Source of the DNA: a virus | Lineage: Duplodnaviria; Heunggongvirae; Uroviricota; Caudoviricetes | DNA: 29,440 nt | Direction: 5' to 3' (one strand) | IMG/VR virus record: IMGVR_UViG_3300045988_117814 | Span: 1-29,440 of that record | Shown: one piece after another, positions 4,204 to 28,766 of the stretch | Layout of the letters: each line of letters begins with the position of its first letter | How positions within the stretch are numbered: the stretch's first letter is position 1 | Notes under the pieces: generated by a model | Databases searched by the model: none | Told to the model about the DNA's origin: nothing | The model's input: the letters and a program-made list of their open reading frames with translations, nothing else | Program-made: the position numbers and the translations under genes

Positions 4204-4575
4204 TTATTGCTCGCTTAACTTCTGCTTCAGCAAGTAACCTTCGAGCATCCAGATTTTGTTTACAGCATTCTGCCGGGCAATCTTCCGACCAATTTCTGCA
4301 TCAAAATTTTCCGGACTTGCACAGGAACTCTCTCCGGTGACGGTGAAGCCGTTGCGCAGCACCAGGACGCAGAACGTCAGCAGAGAAAGTGATTCGTGCG
4401 GCTGGTAGTTTACCTCTCCGCCAGTATGTTTCGCTTTTATGGCTTTGCCAAAGGCACCATCTTCTGCTGTGAAATATGCCTCCTGAGCAATAATGCCTTC
4501 GATATGGTCTGGCGTAACGCGCGGTGCCGTTTTGCCTTTCTCAACGATTTCTTTTTCGATTTGCTGGTCGTTCAT
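4204..4575 (-). CDS. Hypothetical moron protein of unknown function, 123 aa
   Basis: ATG at 4575 with SD (AAGGTGAGATT-ATG on the - strand); opposite orientation to the surrounding late genes; own terminator; shares its strand with the upstream tRNA. Confidence 0.7.
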   Translation of the reverse strand: MNDQQIEKEIVEKGKTAPRVTPDHIEGIIAQEAYFTAEDGAFGKAIKAKHTGGEVNYQPHESLSLLTFCVLVLRNGFTVTGESSCASPENFDAEIGRKIARQNAVNKIWMLEGYLLKQKLSEQ

Positions 4576-4773
4576 AATCTCACCTTAAAAAAATGCCCTG
4601 CGAACCGGGCGAACTGGAAGCAATGAGTTATGCCTTCCGTGGCTGTACTGATTTACAGCATGAAGTCATCGCAATGGCGTCCTGCTGTAAAAAGAGCGGT
4701 GATAGTCCTTCAAGGGAAACCATCACCGCCAAGCCCCTGGAACTTCTGGCATCACGGTCCTTAGGCGTGATTC

Positions 4774-4850
4774 TGGCGTGGTATGCAGGATTCGAACCTG
4801 CGACCAACCGCTTAGAAGGCGGTTGCTCTGTCCAACTGAGCTAATACCAC
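4774..4850 (-). tRNA. tRNA-Arg (anticodon TCT / UCU, reads AGA)
   Basis: Reverse complement folds by hand into a canonical cloverleaf: 7-bp acceptor stem GTGGTAT/ATACCAC, D-arm GCTC/GAGC, anticodon stem ACCGC/GCGGT with loop CTTCTAA, T-arm GCAGG-TTCGAAT-CCTGC, discriminator G and encoded CCA. Confidence 0.9.
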
Positions 4851-5277
4851 AACGCTGAGAGCACTTAGCCTGTTAAGGCGCCACACTTTGTCGCGGCTCC
4901 ATAAATGCTCTCATCGTTGTACCCTCGTCTCTTCCGAGGCGTCACACCGAATCGCCGGGATGGTGAATCCCCGTGCGCGGAATAAAACCGCTCGACTTGC
5001 ACATTCCGGCTACCTGGTTCGTTTGCTCGAGCAAGGGAGGGTGCCCCTTAAACGTATCCAGACCGCTATCGGCGCATGTGCCATACGCCGTACTGCTCAA
5101 AATAAAAGCTCACTCCACCTGTTCAATTTAACGACAAGCCAGTCAGGTTAATAACCGGAATGAACTCTTTGCTTACCTGAAAGGTAATAATTCGTGCGTT
5201 AAATGTCAACTATCTACGATAAATAAATCATATGTGGTTAAATTGGTAATAATTTAATTGCGTACGGAGTCATTGAT

Positions 5278-9170: not shown

Positions 9171-9221
9171 CGCCTGTTATTAACCTGTGGGTCGTAACAG
9201 ACCCACTAATGGAGAAAGAAG

Positions 9222-18781: not shown

Positions 18782-21256
18782 ATGAGACAGGAATGTATAC
18801 AAGCGGTTCAGCAGGCGGCGCAGCGCACGTTAACGGCGCGAGAAATACAGAACATTGAAGACCGCATTTATCGAAATATGCGCTCCATTGCTCGTGATGA
18901 CCCGATGTCGTGGAGACAACTTTCCGAATCAGAGCGGCTATATCGAGCAGCACAATTGGCATCTGAAGAATTACAGCGAGAAGCGGCATTAAAGAAACGT
19001 CGTGTGGCTCTCACTATAGCCGCGCGTCAGAGATTGGATAAGTTTATCAATAGCTATCAAGGGGCTGATGGGAAACTTGGCGCTCTTAACCGTACTATTG
19101 CTTTTAATGCAGACGGTAAATCGAACTTCCTCTCTGTTGAGTCCAGAACAAAAGCCACTCGTGATTATGCATTGAGTCAATTGCAGGAGGCATTTGAAGC
19201 AGTAGATCCTCGCTTTTTTGGCCTGTTTGAAGATGAAGCGGGCGTGCGTGATCTGGTATATGAAATGCGAGGGCAAAATACTGGCAATTCTAAAGCAAGA
19301 AAAGGTGCTAAGGCGTGGAGAGAAGTGACAGAGCTACTGCGACGCCGGTTTAATGATGCTGGTGGGGACATTGGCTATCTCGAAAACTGGGGGATCCCTC
19401 AACATCATTCTATGGAAAAGGTTGGGGCGGTATCAAAGGATAAGTGGGTTAGCGATGTTATAGGTAAGCTGGATCGCAAATATTATATCCGAGCCGATGG
19501 ACAACTGATGAACGATGCCGAGTTGTCTGCATTTCTTGGAGAGGCTTATAACACGATCGCTACTGGTGGGCTGAATAAGCTTACTGATACCGGAATGCGA
19601 ATTTCCGGCTCACGTGCTAACCGTGGTAATGCATCACGACAGATACATTTCAAAGATGCAGATTCCTATCTGCAATATCAGCAACTTTATGGCGATCGCT
19701 CTCTATGGGAAATCATGGTCGGTCACTTGGAAGGTATCAGTAAAGATATTGCACTGGTGGAAACATATGGTCCAAACCCCGATCATGTTTTCCGCTCCCT
19801 TCTTGATCAGGTTAAGGCAGAAACGGCAACAGCTAACCCGAGTAAAACCGGTAGCGTCGAGCGTCTGGCGAACAAAACAGAGAACCTGTACAACTTTATT
19901 TCCGGAAAAACACAGCCTGTAGCGAATCCGCACATCGCGCGATGGTCTGACAATATCCGCAACTGGCTGGTTGCCAGCAGGCTCGGATCCGCGTTGCTGT
20001 CATCGTTCTCTGATCTTGGAACCATGTATCTGTCTGCGAAGGTTACCAACCTTCCAATGAACCAGTTATTCCGCAACCAGCTTGAAGCTATGGACCCAAC
20101 GAACCGTACAGAACTTGCGCGGGCGCGCCGCGCTGGTCTGGCGATGGAATCTCTACTTGGCAGCGTTAACCGCTGGGCGATGGATAATATGGGGCCGTCT
20201 GTGTCTCGTTGGGCGGCAACGGCGGTAATGCGTGCCAGTGGGCTTACAGCATGGTCAGATGCGCACAAGCGCGCCTATGGCGTAACCATGATGGGAAGCC
20301 TGGGAGAAGTAGTGTCACGGACACCAGACCTTCGTAGCCTCGATGACTCTGATTTTCGTATCCTGAAAAGCAAAGGGATTACTGACACAGACTGGAGCGT
20401 GTGGAAACTGGCGCAACAGGAGGACTGGGGGAACGGTAATAATACGATGCTGACACCGGAAAGCATTATGCGTATCCCTGATTCAGCAGTTAAACATCTT
20501 GGTGAGCCTGAACGCGTGAAATTTGAGGCAATGCGTAAACTGCTCGGTGCCGTAACTGAAGAAGTTGATATGGCTGTTATTACACCTGGCGCACGTGAGC
20601 AACTGATAACCGGTTCTGGTATTCAGCGTGGGACATGGAAAGGTGAATTAACGAGAAGTGTTTTCCTGTTTAAATCGTTCCCTATCTCGGTGGTTATGCG
20701 TCACTGGTCACGCGCTATGGGTATGCCGTCTGCTGGTGGGCGTGCGGCATATATTGCGACGTTTATTGCCAGTACGACCATTCTTGGCGCTTTGTCGCAG
20801 CAACTTAACGACCTTGCGTCTGGTCGTAATCCTCGCGAGATGACAGGAGAAGATGCTGCTAAATTTTGGCTTGGTGCTCTACTGAAAGGTGGTGGTCTTG
20901 GCCTTTACGGTGACTTTTTATTGTCAGATCACACTAGGTACGGAAGCGGCGCGCTGGCGTCGATGCTTGGCCCGGTAGCTGGTCTGGTTGATGACGTAGT
21001 GAAGATTGCTCAGGGCATACCGTTAAATGCTGTGGAAGGGAAGAATGAGCAGACTGGTGGTGATCTGGTTAAGCTGGGGAAAGGTCTGATGCCAGGTGCG
21101 AATCTCTGGTACTTAAAGGCGGCTCTCGATCACATGATCTTTAACCAGATGCAGGAGTATTTTTCACCAGGTTATTTGCGTAAAATGGAGCAACGTTCGA
21201 AGAAAGAGTTTAACCAGACATACTGGTGGCGACCTCAGGATGTCACTCCGCAATAA
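18782..21256 (+). CDS. Large internal virion / ejection protein
   Basis: 824 aa; SD GAGAGG; last large gene of the same-strand late operon, which ends at the terminator at 21426-21450. Confidence 0.65.
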   Translation: MRQECIQAVQQAAQRTLTAREIQNIEDRIYRNMRSIARDDPMSWRQLSESERLYRAAQLASEELQREAALKKRRVALTIAARQRLDKFINSYQGADGKLGALNRTIAFNADGKSNFLSVESRTKATRDYALSQLQEAFEAVDPRFFGLFEDEAGVRDLVYEMRGQNTGNSKARKGAKAWREVTELLRRRFNDAGGDIGYLENWGIPQHHSMEKVGAVSKDKWVSDVIGKLDRKYYIRADGQLMNDAELSAFLGEAYNTIATGGLNKLTDTGMRISGSRANRGNASRQIHFKDADSYLQYQQLYGDRSLWEIMVGHLEGISKDIALVETYGPNPDHVFRSLLDQVKAETATANPSKTGSVERLANKTENLYNFISGKTQPVANPHIARWSDNIRNWLVASRLGSALLSSFSDLGTMYLSAKVTNLPMNQLFRNQLEAMDPTNRTELARARRAGLAMESLLGSVNRWAMDNMGPSVSRWAATAVMRASGLTAWSDAHKRAYGVTMMGSLGEVVSRTPDLRSLDDSDFRILKSKGITDTDWSVWKLAQQEDWGNGNNTMLTPESIMRIPDSAVKHLGEPERVKFEAMRKLLGAVTEEVDMAVITPGAREQLITGSGIQRGTWKGELTRSVFLFKSFPISVVMRHWSRAMGMPSAGGRAAYIATFIASTTILGALSQQLNDLASGRNPREMTGEDAAKFWLGALLKGGGLGLYGDFLLSDHTRYGSGALASMLGPVAGLVDDVVKIAQGIPLNAVEGKNEQTGGDLVKLGKGLMPGANLWYLKAALDHMIFNQMQEYFSPGYLRKMEQRSKKEFNQTYWWRPQDVTPQ

Positions 21257-21265
21257 GGATGAGAA

Positions 21266-21406
21266 ATGATTGCTTTTATTCTTGTTGTGTTTGCTCTTGT
21301 TGCACTTGGCGTTATGAACCGTAAATGTATCATTGGTGATGGTGAATTTGCTGTTGCAGTTGTTTTGATATTATCTGGTGTAGCAGGGTACATAGGTTTG
21401 TCATAA
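21266..21406 (+). CDS. Small hydrophobic protein, 46 aa (below the ORF-track size cutoff)
   Basis: ATG at 21266 behind AAGGATGAG; translation MIAFILVVFALVALGVMNRKCIIGDGEFAVAVVLILSGVAGYIGLS; TAA at 21404-21406; terminator immediately after. Confidence 0.4.
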   Translation: MIAFILVVFALVALGVMNRKCIIGDGEFAVAVVLILSGVAGYIGLS

Positions 21407-21425: not shown

Positions 21426-21450
21426 AGGCCGCTCTTGCGGCCTTTTCTTT
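21426..21450 (+). terminator. Rho-independent terminator ending the structural operon
   Basis: AGGCCGC-tctt-GCGGCCT hairpin followed by TTTCTTT. Confidence 0.65.
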
Positions 21451-21706
21451 ATGTGGTTTGTTTTCGTAATTGTTCGGCACAATAGTCGAGATGTGTTTGC
21501 AGATCCCGCATAGACATCTGTGAGCTGGTGACGTAGTTAATCAGTGCAGTCAGTTCGGCAAGTGGGCCATCGACATTAAATCCATCCTTATCGAGATCCC
21601 GGAGTAATTTCATCAAGTGCGATCCCTCCACCAGTGACCTGACGCCTCCCGGCGTGTGAATCCTTTCGGTAAATCCGTCTTCCAGTGGATAGTGATACTG
21701 CTGCAT
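21449..21706 (-). CDS. LexA-controlled small protein; candidate SOS-inducible antirepressor or regulator
   Basis: First ATG at 21706-21704 behind GGAGAAGATAAG on the - strand (the ORF-track start at 21724 is TTG); a near-consensus LexA box lies 22-37 nt upstream. Confidence 0.6.
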   Translation of the reverse strand: MQQYHYPLEDGFTERIHTPGGVRSLVEGSHLMKLLRDLDKDGFNVDGPLAELTALINYVTSSQMSMRDLQTHLDYCAEQLRKQTT

Positions 21707-21725
21707 CTTATCTTCTCCATGCAAT

Positions 21726-21745
21726 AACTGTATATTTATACAGTA
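21726..21745. promoter_or_regulatory. LexA (SOS) box
   Basis: AACTGTATATTTATACAGTA: CTGT-N8-ACAG with an AT-rich spacer, 18 of 20 matches to the consensus TACTGTATATATATACAGTA. Confidence 0.7.
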
Positions 21746-21901
21746 TCAAATAATTTGTTTGCTATCCAGCACGTTTTGCAAATCACCTGAAAGGTAATAT
21801 CTGTTTGTATTCATGGTCTATCTATCTATATATGGTTTTTCGGGTAATAGAATAATCGGATATGCGGCGCAACGGGTGCTGCGACTATCTGGAGATTTAA
21901 C

Positions 21902-24331
21902 ATGACGGTCTCAACCGAAGTTAACCACAACGAATACACCGGTAACGGCGTTACGACATCATTCCCTTATACCTTTAGGGTTTTCAATAAATCTGATTTA
22001 GTAGTGCAGGTGATTGACCTTGACGAGAATATCACTGTGCTGGATCTTGATACTGATTACACAGTCACTGGTGCGGGAGGGTATAACGGTGGCAATGTAA
22101 TTCTGTCGAAGGCACTGGCTAATGGTTATCAGATTTCCATATTGCGAGAACTATCGGTTACTCAGGAAACAGATCTTAGAAACCAGGGTAAGTTTTTTGC
22201 TGAGGTGCACGAAGACGCGTTTGATAAGCTAACGATGCTGATCCAGCAGGTAAGAAGTTGGTTTTCACTTGCTCTTCGTAAGCCATCTTTTGTGTCGAAT
22301 TATTATGACGCTATTAACAACTACATCAGAAATCTGCGAGACCCTGTGCGCCCACAGGATGCGGCAACTAAAAATTATGTCGATAAACTTGCTAATACAA
22401 ATCTAGGTCGTACTCTTAGAACGCCTGAGCCAATACCAAGTTTGCCTGATGCTGAGAATCGTAAAAACAAAGTGGTAGCGATGGATGACAATGGTAATCC
22501 TATTATGGTCCTTCCACAGTCTGGATCTGCATCCGATGTAATGATTCAGCTAGCAGCAAGTGATGGCTTAAAACTTATTGGCAATTGTGCTTCCATTTCT
22601 AATTTACGCAATATAGAACCAACAAATTTACAGCAAAGAATATATGTATTAGAGCATACTTTAGGCTCTGGTATTGGAGGTGGGTATTTTTATTATGATA
22701 GCACTGATTTAACAACAATTGATGATGATGGAATGATAATTGTGACGCCTGGTGGAAAGCGTTGGAAAAGAATCTGCAATGAAGTGTATGCTGATTATTA
22801 CGGAATTGTTCCTGATGGAGTAACGGATTGTCATGATAAATTGAACAAAGCACTGCAAGCGGCAAAAATGGCAACGGTGAAAGAGCTTATTCTTTCTGAA
22901 GGTACTTACGGGATTAACTCTGCACTGAAAGTACCATCTTACGTTAGATTGTGTGGGGTGGGGAAATTTAAGACCGTTATTCTAGCACTACCAACAATGC
23001 CGATAATTGAAAACTGTATTCAGAACGAGCTTTATGAATACAGGGTATTCAGGACAAACTACGATACTTCTATCCACATAGAAGACTTATGTGTAGATGC
23101 TAACAATCGAGCAAGAAATCCGTCAGAAACATGGATGGATGCCACACAGGGGACTACTATTTTATTTTCTACTGTCAGCCACAGTTCCATCAAAAACGTT
23201 TACTGTAAGCGTGGTTTGCAGCATGGTATAGATATTTGTGCTGGGTATTATTTCGATGATGGGAATATTAATAATAATGCAGTTGGTGGTAGCTATGACA
23301 TTGTTGTTGAAGACACTTTTGTTCAAAACAGTCAACTTGACGATCTCATTACAACGCATAATAGCAGTGATATTGTAATTAACCGCTGCCGAGTATGGAA
23401 CGATGACCCTGATATGGTATGGACAGGGAATCAGCATGGTATTGAAATTGATGAAGGAAGTTATAATGTTACCGTGATGGATTGTTATGCGGATGGGGTA
23501 ATGACTGGATTTCAGCAGAAGGGCCACTCAACAACAATGCCCGCAAGATGTGTTAAATTTTATAGATGTTATGCAAAAAATTGTGTTCATGGATTCCAAA
23601 TTGAGCACATTAATACAGCATCAATACCATCGGGGCGGCATCAAAATGCCAGGTATTCCGTTATAGCAAGTTGTACGGTTGAAAACGCAAACAACTCAAA
23701 ATACACATCAAACCATGCAAGGGTTGTTGAAATTTTAGGGTTCTACGGTATTTATATAAATGAATTAAGGGTTATCGGAGGTGCTGGTAATATATATATT
23801 AGCGGCGGAGCAAGATATATAAACATAGATGGCATTTTTTGGGATGGTGGATACTCAGGAGCTTCCGATACTGATGCCGAGGGATTGGTTCATATAGAAA
23901 CTGATTCAAGCTGTGATGACTACACGATAAATAACTTTATCTGTGAAGATAGCGTAAGTGTTCCATTGATTAGAGATTTGACAGACTCAAGAGTTCAAAG
24001 AGGAATAAGTAATATTAGAGGTTATGGTAAAAACGCAACAATACCAATGATAGCCATTGTCCCAAATGATGATGATAATATATCAAACATATCAACAGCT
24101 GGATCATGGCTTTGTGCTATTAATGATATGGCCAGAGCTCCAGGGACAGGAACATATAGTCAGAATGTTTCTTTTATACATGGTATTTCATTGATAAGCG
24201 GTTCAGGAACTCCTTACGGAGTTATTAATGGTAAGCCAGGAGGATTATATGTTGACAAAAACACAGGATACTTCTATCAATGCACAAGCGCAGGAAGTGG
24301 AGGATGGAAGGGGTTGGTAAGTAATCCTTAA
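21902..24331 (+). CDS. Tailspike (receptor-binding, probable O-antigen depolymerase)
   Basis: 809 aa; N-terminal particle-binding-type domain (EYTGNGVTTSFPYTF...) of the kind seen in many podovirus tailspikes, followed by an AT-rich body with beta-helix-like repeats; last structural gene. Confidence 0.8.
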   Translation: MTVSTEVNHNEYTGNGVTTSFPYTFRVFNKSDLVVQVIDLDENITVLDLDTDYTVTGAGGYNGGNVILSKALANGYQISILRELSVTQETDLRNQGKFFAEVHEDAFDKLTMLIQQVRSWFSLALRKPSFVSNYYDAINNYIRNLRDPVRPQDAATKNYVDKLANTNLGRTLRTPEPIPSLPDAENRKNKVVAMDDNGNPIMVLPQSGSASDVMIQLAASDGLKLIGNCASISNLRNIEPTNLQQRIYVLEHTLGSGIGGGYFYYDSTDLTTIDDDGMIIVTPGGKRWKRICNEVYADYYGIVPDGVTDCHDKLNKALQAAKMATVKELILSEGTYGINSALKVPSYVRLCGVGKFKTVILALPTMPIIENCIQNELYEYRVFRTNYDTSIHIEDLCVDANNRARNPSETWMDATQGTTILFSTVSHSSIKNVYCKRGLQHGIDICAGYYFDDGNINNNAVGGSYDIVVEDTFVQNSQLDDLITTHNSSDIVINRCRVWNDDPDMVWTGNQHGIEIDEGSYNVTVMDCYADGVMTGFQQKGHSTTMPARCVKFYRCYAKNCVHGFQIEHINTASIPSGRHQNARYSVIASCTVENANNSKYTSNHARVVEILGFYGIYINELRVIGGAGNIYISGGARYINIDGIFWDGGYSGASDTDAEGLVHIETDSSCDDYTINNFICEDSVSVPLIRDLTDSRVQRGISNIRGYGKNATIPMIAIVPNDDDNISNISTAGSWLCAINDMARAPGTGTYSQNVSFIHGISLISGSGTPYGVINGKPGGLYVDKNTGYFYQCTSAGSGGWKGLVSNP

Positions 24332-24379: not shown

Positions 24380-25381
24380 TTATTTTAGTTTTCTTAGAAT
24401 ATTTCTGCTTGGCTTTTCTACTAAATGAAATGTTAATATGGAAAACATCAGTGTAGATATAACCATAACAAACACATCATTTATATAACTAACATTTAAC
24501 CATTCAGTTATTGCATTCACTTCAAATATAAAATGCCTTTGTATCATCAGGTGCGTAAGGTAAATTGAAAAAGACAACTCCCCCAAATAATGAATAGGTT
24601 TTGTTGATAGTAACCATCCTGTTATTCCAGTGCTATAATAAAGCGATGATATATATAATCCGGTCAAAATAACAAAAACAATATCCATTCCTTTTGTTAG
24701 TAAACACGCTATTACTAAAGCCGCCAAAATATCTTGAGTATATGCAATAACATTAAATGTGTGTTTGTATTTATCAAATAAAACATAGCAACAACAACCT
24801 ATAGTGAAACCACAAACACCTCTCATTATTGAAGGGATTCCGCTATATATATCAAGTGGCCCGCTACTACCAGGGTTGTCAATTGTTGTAATATAAAACA
24901 ACATTGACATTGATGTGTAAATTATTATGAAACATAACCATTTCTTATCGGTTAATAAGAATATTAGAGGCGGAAATATTAAATACGCAATTAATTCAAC
25001 GCTAACAGACCATGATGCACCAACCATTCCATTATTAAATAAATTTTGCCACATCATAAAATTTATTATGAGATTTTGAGTTGATGGTGGCGATGATTGA
25101 TTTACTTGAATAATTATTGTTAATAATAAAACAAATAAATATAATGGATATATTCTTGAAAATCTATGCCAAATAAATTTTCCAAATTCACTAACAGATA
25201 TTTCTTGTGTGAAATTTTTAGAGTATACCATACACATTATAAATCCGCTTAATACGAAAAAAAGATCTACTGCTAGATATCCGTTCCATAGAAAAGGTAT
25301 TTTTGCGTTTGTAAAGTGATAAAGAACTACGTAAATTGCAGCTATTCCTCTAACACCTGTTAGTGATTTTATTTCTTTCAT
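24380..25381 (-). CDS. oac: Acyltransferase family 3 integral membrane protein; probable O-antigen O-acetyltransferase (lysogenic conversion)
   Basis: 333 aa, multi-pass membrane protein with hallmark motifs SLTGVRGIAAIYVVLYHF and VDLFFVLSGF; very AT-rich; convergent with the tailspike. Confidence 0.8.
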   Translation of the reverse strand: MKEIKSLTGVRGIAAIYVVLYHFTNAKIPFLWNGYLAVDLFFVLSGFIMCMVYSKNFTQEISVSEFGKFIWHRFSRIYPLYLFVLLLTIIIQVNQSSPPSTQNLIINFMMWQNLFNNGMVGASWSVSVELIAYLIFPPLIFLLTDKKWLCFIIIYTSMSMLFYITTIDNPGSSGPLDIYSGIPSIMRGVCGFTIGCCCYVLFDKYKHTFNVIAYTQDILAALVIACLLTKGMDIVFVILTGLYISSLYYSTGITGWLLSTKPIHYLGELSFSIYLTHLMIQRHFIFEVNAITEWLNVSYINDVFVMVISTLMFSILTFHLVEKPSRNILRKLK

Positions 25382-27556: not shown

Positions 27557-27600
27557 CACTCAATTGGTTATGGTTGTCGTAAATAATTGAGTGGGAATGA
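27557..27600. other. Probable attR junction: inverted repeat overlapping a remnant of the guaA 3' end
   Basis: Inverted repeat CACTCAATT-N19-AATTGAGTG (27557-27593); ATT GAG TGG GAA TGA (27586-27600) encodes ...IEWE-stop but is preceded by an in-frame TAA. Confidence 0.4.
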
Positions 27601-27624
27601 TTTGACCCTGCACTATGAATGAAC

Positions 27625-27692: not shown

Positions 27693-28232
27693 TTAATTAA
27701 ACCAGCTGTCCGATTTGTTCTCTTCTGCTTTGCCCACGCTTTTCATCAGATCGCGACCGCCTTCAGTCATATTTCTGTTGGCGTCAGCTTCAGATTGCAC
27801 CACATCGGTTTGCGCAGCTTTGTGCTTCAGTTCCTGATCGATAAATTCGTTTTCTCGCTTAACGCGGGCTTCTTCTTTCGCCAGCGCCAGTTTTTGTTTC
27901 TGAATCTCTAAGCTGCGTAGCTCATCTTCATAACTTTGATCGCGTTTTTTGTCCGCAGAGGCTTCGGCGTCCAGTTTATCCTGACGAGCTTTCTTATTTG
28001 CCGCTGCCGTTGCCGCTCTTTTGTTAGCGGCGGCCTGGGCATTTGCGCGACGTTGCTTCTCTTGCTGGATTTCCCTGTTGCGCTCCGCGACCCATTCGTC
28101 ATGCTGCCTTTGCTCTTCATTTTTACCTTGCTGTTCCGCTTCTGCGACAGCAGAGAGTTGATCCTGCAATGATGAGGCGATAGCCGGATAGCTTAAGGAG
28201 GCTAAGATGGCGCAAAGAAAAACTTTCTTCAT
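27693..28232 (-). CDS. yfgI: Chromosomal secreted/periplasmic protein, YfgI-like
   Basis: 179 aa; signal peptide (MKKVFLCAILASLSYPAIA) then a charged coiled coil; size and neighbour order match the E. coli yfgG-yfgH-yfgI locus as I recall it. Confidence 0.65.
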   Translation of the reverse strand: MKKVFLCAILASLSYPAIASSLQDQLSAVAEAEQQGKNEEQRQHDEWVAERNREIQQEKQRRANAQAAANKRAATAAANKKARQDKLDAEASADKKRDQSYEDELRSLEIQKQKLALAKEEARVKRENEFIDQELKHKAAQTDVVQSEADANRNMTEGGRDLMKSVGKAEENKSDSWFN

Positions 28233-28247
28233 GACTCCTCCTGATTA

Positions 28248-28766
28248 TTAGCTCTTTTCAGGACATTTGGTATTTGGCTGAATACGCGTTTCGTTATACG
28301 TCGTGGTAATAACAACGGCTAAACCTGTCGTAAACTGGCACTCTTTACCCACCTGGGTAGAGGTATACACTTTGGTGCCTTCCTTATAGGTTAAAGAAAC
28401 ACCTTCCACTAAGGTTTTATCATTCACCATAGAACCCGCTGCCGCGCCTACAGCTCCGCCGCCAACTGCACCTGCCGTCGTTCCGGAATTGCTGCCAGAC
28501 CCGACGTTGTGGCCGATAACACCGCCAGCGACTGCGCCAATAAGCGCGCCGAAGGCTTGTGCGTTCCGTTTATTTTGGGAGTTGTCTACGGCAACTTTTG
28601 CGGGAAGAATGGAAATAATATTAACGGTTTTAGTTTCTTGTTTGGTATTCAGTTGATCGGTTTGATAAACATCGGCGGCATGATCGTCAGCATTTGACTG
28701 GCATCCTGCCAGAGTGAATGACGCTAACATTGCTACAGGCAGAAGACATTTTTTAAATTTCATCAC
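28248..28766 (-). CDS. yfgH: Outer-membrane lipoprotein with a glycine-zipper segment, YfgH-like
   Basis: 172 aa; lipobox LAGC; Gly-rich stretch GALIGAVAGGVIGHNVGSG...GAVGGGAVGAAAG. Confidence 0.7.
   Translation of the reverse strand: MMKFKKCLLPVAMLASFTLAGCQSNADDHAADVYQTDQLNTKQETKTVNIISILPAKVAVDNSQNKRNAQAFGALIGAVAGGVIGHNVGSGSNSGTTAGAVGGGAVGAAAGSMVNDKTLVEGVSLTYKEGTKVYTSTQVGKECQFTTGLAVVITTTYNETRIQPNTKCPEKS

Follow-up and report, generated by a model that had tools for sequence, protein, structure and literature searches.

A predicted SOS-triggered antirepressor gene in an epsilon15-like prophage of Escherichia coli, orthologous to ant of Salmonella phage SPC32H

The ant locus and the surrounding prophage

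The window, which is the whole stretch of DNA analysed here (29,440 nucleotides), contains on its minus strand a small Open Reading Frame (ORF) at 21449-21706, encoding a protein of 85 aa that begins MQQYHYPLEDGF. Based on the ORF itself, the match to PDB entry 5D50_E, tblastn and synteny with the ‘ant’ gene of KC911856, this gene is listed as ant, an antirepressor gene orthologous to that of Salmonella phage SPC32H. The first-pass annotation of this DNA had proposed an 85-aa protein encoded opposite to the late genes, and the ORF on the minus strand confirms it. The genes preceding ant are both on the plus strand and encode an 824-aa virion protein (18782-21256) and a 46-aa membrane protein (21266-21406), and ant is transcribed divergently from the tailspike gene (21902-24331, plus strand). 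Just beyond the ant stop codon, a G+C-rich hairpin (21426-21443, plus strand) forms a canonical terminator of the plus-strand operon; read on the ant strand, it lacks a T-run. A rho-independent terminator is annotated at the equivalent place in the epsilon15 record.

The ORF lister gave a version of 91 aa, starting from an upstream TTG at 21724 inside the untranslated leader, and this start is supported neither by the orthologue alignment nor by the crystallised protein. The ATG at 21706 is the better start, because it has a GGAG 8 nt in front of it, is conserved among the orthologues and equals the start of the crystallised SPC32H protein. This Shine-Dalgarno sequence (21715-21718, minus strand) was read from the sequence, and its column is kept in 8 of 8 orthologous loci. 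In several records ant is called as a gene of 126-127 aa (L004:3251-3631 in phage PAS61; clusters P0014, P0017 and P0020), reading through the LexA box and the promoter; these calls with an upstream start are probably a gene-calling artefact.

The hydrophobic 46-aa protein belongs to PHROG 7892 (unknown function) and is named ‘putative integral membrane protein’ in SPC32H. The slot of its gene is replaced or expanded in relatives by other small genes or by a Bro-N cassette, and it is therefore an insertion hotspot.

The nucleotide identity of the locus is 95-97% to phages PAS61, phiV10 and TL-2011b and about 79% to SPN1S, SPC32H and SPC32N. Judged by such comparisons, the window is from an epsilon15-like (Uetakevirus) podophage prophage of E. 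coli. Its modules run in the order of terminase genes and tRNA-Arg, portal and capsid genes, internal virion proteins, the 824-aa protein, the 46-aa membrane protein, the small minus-strand gene, the tailspike, an O-antigen acyltransferase and the holin/endolysin/spanin genes. In the visible part of the prophage the packaging, head, tail and lysis modules are complete and the attR core is intact. The attachment core ATTGAGTGGGAATGATT at 27586-27602, which is the published attachment core of phiV10, epsilon15 and ZX5 (PMC9782041), marks the right prophage end. Beyond it are the host genes yfgI and yfgH (ORFs in 27693-28766); the first ORF after the core is 99% identical to yfgI, and the next one is like yfgH in length and position only. 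Integration takes place at the 3' end of guaA in the relative from E. coli 2013C-4538 and in phage ZX5.

Neither rep nor int is found within the 29.4-kb window. With the attachment core and host genes at the right end, the integrase and the repressor should therefore lie to the left of the window, in agreement with the first-pass annotation, which had put the prophage repressor there. Its framing of the locus as the place of the P22 immI region did not stand: a P22-like phage with an immI region was rejected because the locus matches Uetakevirus, and what is left is an analogy of position.

Several other features of this prophage were recorded. The tailspike has 809 aa; its N-terminus is conserved in Uetakevirus and its receptor-binding part resembles pectate lyase. 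Among loci with identical ant the tailspike C-termini are highly variable (endosialidase, Peptidase_S74, pectate lyase). The minus-strand Acyl_transf_3 gene after the tailspike (24380-25381) is likely a serotype-conversion gene, since it encodes a putative O-antigen acetylase. A tRNA-Arg gene (anticodon TCT; 4774-4850, minus strand) sits inside the prophage and is also present in SPC32H.

LexA box, candidate promoters and palindrome upstream of ant

The sequence AACTGTATATTTATACAGTA at 21726-21745 (no strand assigned) is a LexA (SOS) box that agrees with the consensus TACTGTATATATATACAGTA at 18 of 20 positions (2 mismatches). No other site in the 29.4-kb window comes within three mismatches of the LexA consensus, and none is expected (0 of 100 shuffles with a match). 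Its CTGT-N8-ACAG core occupies 21728-21743, that is, 22-37 nt 5' of the A of the ant ATG at 21706. The first-pass annotation had described this near-consensus box with the same score, core and distance, and every detail was recovered in the sequence.

The core CTGT-N8-ACAG alone is found in 3 copies in the window versus 0.46 expected, and the copy at 21728-21743 is the only one that has an A+T spacer together with consensus flanks. The second copy, CTGTACTGATTTACAG at 4643-4658, is located 68 nt upstream of a minus-strand gene of the Gp49/Sf6-gp66 family (4204-4575), between this gene and tRNA-Arg, and is present in close E. coli relatives. As an SOS box it is not credible, with 7 of 20 positions mismatched (counted by eye) and no counterpart in SPC32H. 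The third copy, CTGTGGGTCGTAACAG at 9185-9200, lies between the major capsid and Bbp16 genes; it is not credible as an SOS box either, having no counterpart in SPC32H, and it is probably not a LexA site because its spacer is G+C-rich.

We aligned the ant-tailspike intergenic region of 8 phage loci (mean column identity 75%). In the window, SPC32H, epsilon15, Tyrion and BUCT554, the half-sites of the box are retained equally far from the start codon. Three Klebsiella phages have ATGT-N8-ACAG, with ATGT for CTGT and the rest of the consensus perfect. In E. coli, 10 of 10 loci with identical Ant, lying in several different gene contexts, have the box 22 nt 5' of the ATG. The alignment shows the LexA box to be conserved along with the ant gene.

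SPC32H and SPC32N differ at this site by a single G to T, which turns CTGT into CTTT in the SPC32N box; the equivalent base in the window is G21730. According to Kim and Ryu (2013, J Virol 87:11775), the two phages reportedly differ by just two nucleotides, and the change in the box is said to end LexA control, leading to constitutive Ant and lytic growth of SPC32N. We take the CTTT of the SPC32N box to be this published mutation, and the observed difference fits the published account of constitutive Ant synthesis.

A strict sigma-70 promoter scan returned no promoter on the ant strand. A permissive position weight matrix (PWM) scan was also run over the 8 orthologous regions, and its calls are candidates only. 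TGGATA-17-TACTGT ranks first in 5 of the 8 regions, and a candidate among the top four with its -10 at the same alignment column is found in all 8, the hexamers at that column being TGGAAA-17-TATATG in the three Klebsiella phages. For the window, the scan places a candidate -10 of P_ant, TACTGT, at 21740-21745 (minus strand), which coincides with the distal half of the LexA box, and a candidate -35, TGGATA, at 21763-21768 (minus strand). The latter falls within a block that all 5 non-Klebsiella sequences share as GCTGGATAG and that reads CTGGAAAAC in the 3 Klebsiella phages. TATACA/TACAGT (21734-21727) are alternative -10 candidates. The LexA box thus overlaps the putative ant promoter, through the candidate -10 alone, and the position of this candidate inside the box fits the overlap of box and ant promoter reported in the literature. 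The same permissive scan also gives a conserved candidate tailspike promoter, TCTATA-17-TAGAAT, at 21825-21853.

Between the two candidate promoters there is a 17-bp palindrome, ATCACCTGAAAGGTAAT (21782-21798, no strand assigned), resembling the Rep operator ATTACC-N5-GGTAAT. It is kept in 8 of 8 aligned loci, 37 bp beyond the LexA box, and the epsilon15 record labels the ant-proximal copy ‘protein_bind repressor’. Sites of this type number 5 in the window versus 0.81 expected, including 2012-2028, 2030-2046, 5172-5188 and the one near ant, and the palindrome also stands in front of the terminase and portal operons. SPC32H has 18 sites versus 0.92 expected; they cluster to either side of rep and precede most of the transcription units. 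The motif is a predicted Rep operator.

Such an operator next to ant raises the alternative that ant is chiefly under Rep through this palindrome, or has only lytic expression, with the LexA box not being the main control. The presence of the palindrome between ant and tailspike in every aligned locus, its clustering around rep and its label in the epsilon15 record speak for this. But it is clear of both candidate promoter cores, with 13 bp between it and the -35 of P_ant on one side and 26 bp between it and the -35 of the tailspike promoter on the other, whereas the LexA box is near-consensus, unique and positionally conserved, and a single base of the box separates SPC32N, with its reportedly constitutive Ant and lytic growth, from SPC32H. 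We therefore regard control of ant mainly through the palindrome, or expression confined to lytic growth, as very unlikely, and LexA as the probable main regulator.

The Ant protein and its predicted partner Rep

The 85-aa protein matches chain E of PDB 5D50, the ‘Anti-repressor protein’ of Salmonella phage SPC32H, with an E-value of 4.6e-47 (residues 2-85 on 3-86), and this entry is the Ant-Rep complex of SPC32H. The identity to SPC32H Ant is 86-87% (86.9% by tblastn against the annotated ant of SPC32H and SPC32N), the lengths are 85 and 86 aa, and the homology extends over the whole of a protein that stands alone at about 86 aa. Both GenBank records, of SPC32H and of SPC32N, name the syntenic gene ‘ant’, and the order and orientation of the genes in SPC32H are identical to those of the window: 824-aa protein, 46-aa membrane protein, opposite-strand ant and tailspike (SPC32H genes 018-021).

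Over 84 aa, the protein shows no difference from that of the phage records phiv142-3 and HEMP4 (100% identity), and the gene is also present in phages phiV10, TL-2011b, PAS61 and ZX5. The exact sequence was found in more than 1,700 collection blocks, and the homologue search yielded 142 clusters, essentially all from Enterobacteriaceae (E. coli, Salmonella, Citrobacter, Klebsiella and Enterobacter), with one Yersinia enterocolitica record among them. The ant locus is present in 537 of 5,426 complete E. coli genomes (about 10%), where RefSeq names the product ‘hypothetical protein’.

The Pfam, NCBIfam and PHROG scans of the protein assigned no named family, PHROG 450 being of ‘unknown function’. 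The name ‘hypothetical protein’ in RefSeq follows from this lack of a Pfam or NCBIfam model and from the PHROG 450 label. A partial match to phrog_1760 ‘anti-repressor’ was detected (E-value 6.6e-07), and a sub-threshold match to DUF724 was dismissed as chance. At E-values up to 1, Pfam gave no match to DinI, in line with the earlier observation by eye that the protein does not resemble DinI, and none to the P22-type Ant domains (P22_AR_N, ANT, AntA and Bro-N).

The family is known both genetically, from Kim and Ryu in 2013 (J Virol 87:11775), and structurally, from Kim and co-workers in 2016 (PNAS 113:E2480; PDB 5D50 and 5D4Z). By homology and synteny, the gene of the window is the E. coli counterpart of SPC32H Ant, a routine orthologue in a family already known. 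The functional guess of the first-pass annotation, a LexA-controlled small antirepressor, holds up with 87% identity to SPC32H Ant and the same box position; its suggestion that the family might be undescribed does not.

Because the window is without rep, we infer the partner of its Ant from relatives. Of the 35 phage records that contain an Ant homologue, none lacks a Rep homologue, and in the phage records every E. coli-type Ant (at least 97% identity) is accompanied by a phiV10-type Rep (at least 98.5%). A prophage of E. coli 2013C-4538, which is 97.6% identical at the locus and adjoins guaA, encodes a 194-aa helix-turn-helix (HTH) protein at the expected place of Rep (L006:9179-9763). This protein matches 5D50 chain A ‘Repressor’ with an E-value of 4e-42 and is 42% identical to SPC32H Rep. 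Only HTH domains were detected in it, with no Peptidase_S24 domain, which fits a repressor that RecA could not make self-cleave. The first-pass annotation had supposed a prophage with a non-cleavable repressor, and the domain content of this cognate Rep from a relative supports it.

Between the E. coli and Salmonella lineages, Ant is 87% identical and Rep just 42%, and for Tyrion the values are 86% for Ant and 78% for Rep. Conservation of the Ant-Rep interaction in the E. coli lineage is assumed here, since the E. coli-type Rep is 42% and Ant 87% identical to the SPC32H proteins. The immunity and ant modules seem to have had different evolutionary histories, and Ant may therefore tolerate divergent Reps.

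Another copy of the Ant domain is found in larger proteins. Residues 2-75 of Ant are 43% identical to the C-terminal 75 aa or so of Bro-N and AntA proteins of 218-231 aa, and the resemblance of these neighbouring proteins to Ant is confined to their C-terminal, non-Pfam part. The fusions are absent from the window. In many Uetakevirus prophages of E. coli (for example, L010:4641-5333, L013:4408-5064 and L026:1078-1773) they are encoded about 0.3-1.4 kb away from an identical small ant. In L010, the one locus that was read, the fusion gene is preceded by a Rep-operator-like palindrome, ATTACCTTTTCGGTAAA, and not by a LexA box.

The first-pass annotation had also considered that the small protein might be an undescribed antirepressor family or another SOS effector, for instance one acting in division inhibition or anti-defence. 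In a wider form of this alternative, which also takes in DinI-like modulators of RecA, the protein would be no antirepressor. In its favour are the database entries, with no Pfam or NCBIfam family, PHROG 450 of ‘unknown function’ and names that are nearly all ‘hypothetical protein’. However, a protein 87% identical to it was crystallised with its repressor (5D50_E, E-value 4.6e-47), Rep accompanies Ant in all 35 phage records, the Ant domain is also fused to antirepressor-type Bro-N and AntA proteins, and phrog_1760 ‘anti-repressor’ is matched while Pfam DinI is not. An undescribed family or a different kind of SOS effector is thus highly improbable, and the protein is better described as a member of the SPC32H Ant family.

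The proposed switch and related systems

From the above, we consider it very probable that the locus is the ant gene of an epsilon15-like E. coli prophage and forms an SOS-triggered antirepression switch orthologous to that of SPC32H. Homology, synteny, conservation of the box and co-occurrence with Rep were observed here, and LexA binding, SOS induction and the Ant-Rep complex would carry over from SPC32H by analogy. In the lysogen, host LexA would sit on the SOS box overlapping the ant promoter and keep ant silent. After DNA damage, activated RecA would bring about LexA self-cleavage and hence transcription of ant. The 85-aa Ant would then bind Rep, which measures about 195 aa, has two HTH regions, lacks a self-cleavage domain and is presumably encoded to the left of the window, and would split the DNA-binding Rep tetramer into dimers, so that Rep would leave its operators and the lytic genes could be expressed.

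That the gene is instead a silent remnant in a defective prophage, with no current role, is highly improbable, for although the window is part of a prophage with rep and int out of view, and some of the prophages behind the locus in about 10% of complete E. coli genomes are surely defective, the ORF, Shine-Dalgarno sequence and box are all intact, the protein is identical over 84 aa to that of phiv142-3 and HEMP4, its exact sequence recurs in more than 1,700 collection blocks, and the visible modules and the attR core are whole.

As the SPC32H switch has already been described genetically and structurally, its E. coli counterpart has little weight as a discovery and matters for annotation. There is a database gap, in which Pfam, NCBIfam and PHROGs give the gene no function and it is called ‘hypothetical protein’ almost everywhere. 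Correct naming of ant would explain how O-antigen-modifying prophages of pathogenic E. coli sense DNA damage.

A further, speculative idea starts from Ant being far more conserved than Rep, so that Ant may be broad-spectrum. A broad-spectrum Ant might cross-induce heteroimmune epsilon15-like prophages on one SOS signal, comparable to the Gifsy antirepressors, and the second copy of the Ant domain, placed behind a Rep-operator-like site in the Bro-N/AntA fusions, would give a two-stage, feed-forward induction circuit. We regard this combined proposal as possible but rather doubtful.

The closest known system, the Ant/Rep/LexA switch of SPC32H, shares with the window the orthologous Ant, the genus Uetakevirus, gene order, orientation, the distance of the box and, judged from relatives, probably a Rep of the same family encoded elsewhere in the genome. 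It differs in the host (Salmonella instead of E. coli) and in the 8-bp spacer of the box, which is ATATTTAT in the window and ATAAACAT in SPC32H. The experiments stem from SPC32H, whereas the small Ant of the E. coli lineage is annotated ‘hypothetical’ and known from sequence. In SPC32H, the Ant tetramer binds Rep and dissociates Rep tetramers (PMC9638917). SPC32H is listed in a review among Salmonella prophages induced through a LexA-controlled antirepressor, which is produced after LexA self-cleavage (PMC7380047).

Tum of coliphage 186 (Shearwin et al. 1998) and the Gifsy/Fels-2 antirepressors (Lemire et al. 2011, PMC3121763) follow the same logic: LexA represses a small antirepressor, which acts through protein-protein contact to inactivate a repressor that is not cleavable (PMC7380047). 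They belong to myo- and siphovirus prophages and, as far as a comparison through libraries goes, have no family in common with the Ant of the window in the PHROG, Pfam and NCBIfam scans. Kim and Ryu reportedly described the SPC32H class as structurally distinct from Tum and the Gifsy/Fels-2 antirepressors.

The immI Ant of P22 is also encoded by a gene adjoining the tailspike gene of a short-tailed temperate phage. It is different in size (about 300 aa) and domains (Pfam P22_AR_N/ANT). It is controlled by Mnt (immI: Mnt, Arc and sar) and not by LexA; a P22 ant mutant is still SOS-inducible (PMC7380047).

The Bro-N/AntA proteins share an Ant-like C-terminal domain with the small Ant and differ from it in their length of 218-231 aa and in the N-terminal Bro-N or AntA domain. 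One of them, the ‘ORF4 anti-repressor’ of phage ZX5 (vB_EcoP_ZX5), has 231 aa, and its C-terminal domain is 43% identical to the Ant of the window. Overexpression of ORF4 lowered lysogeny in an E. coli host (PMC9782041) carrying a Rep of the same type. It was this larger Bro-N protein that was treated as the ‘anti-repressor’ in the ZX5 study, and the small ant gene is unnamed there (PMC9782041).
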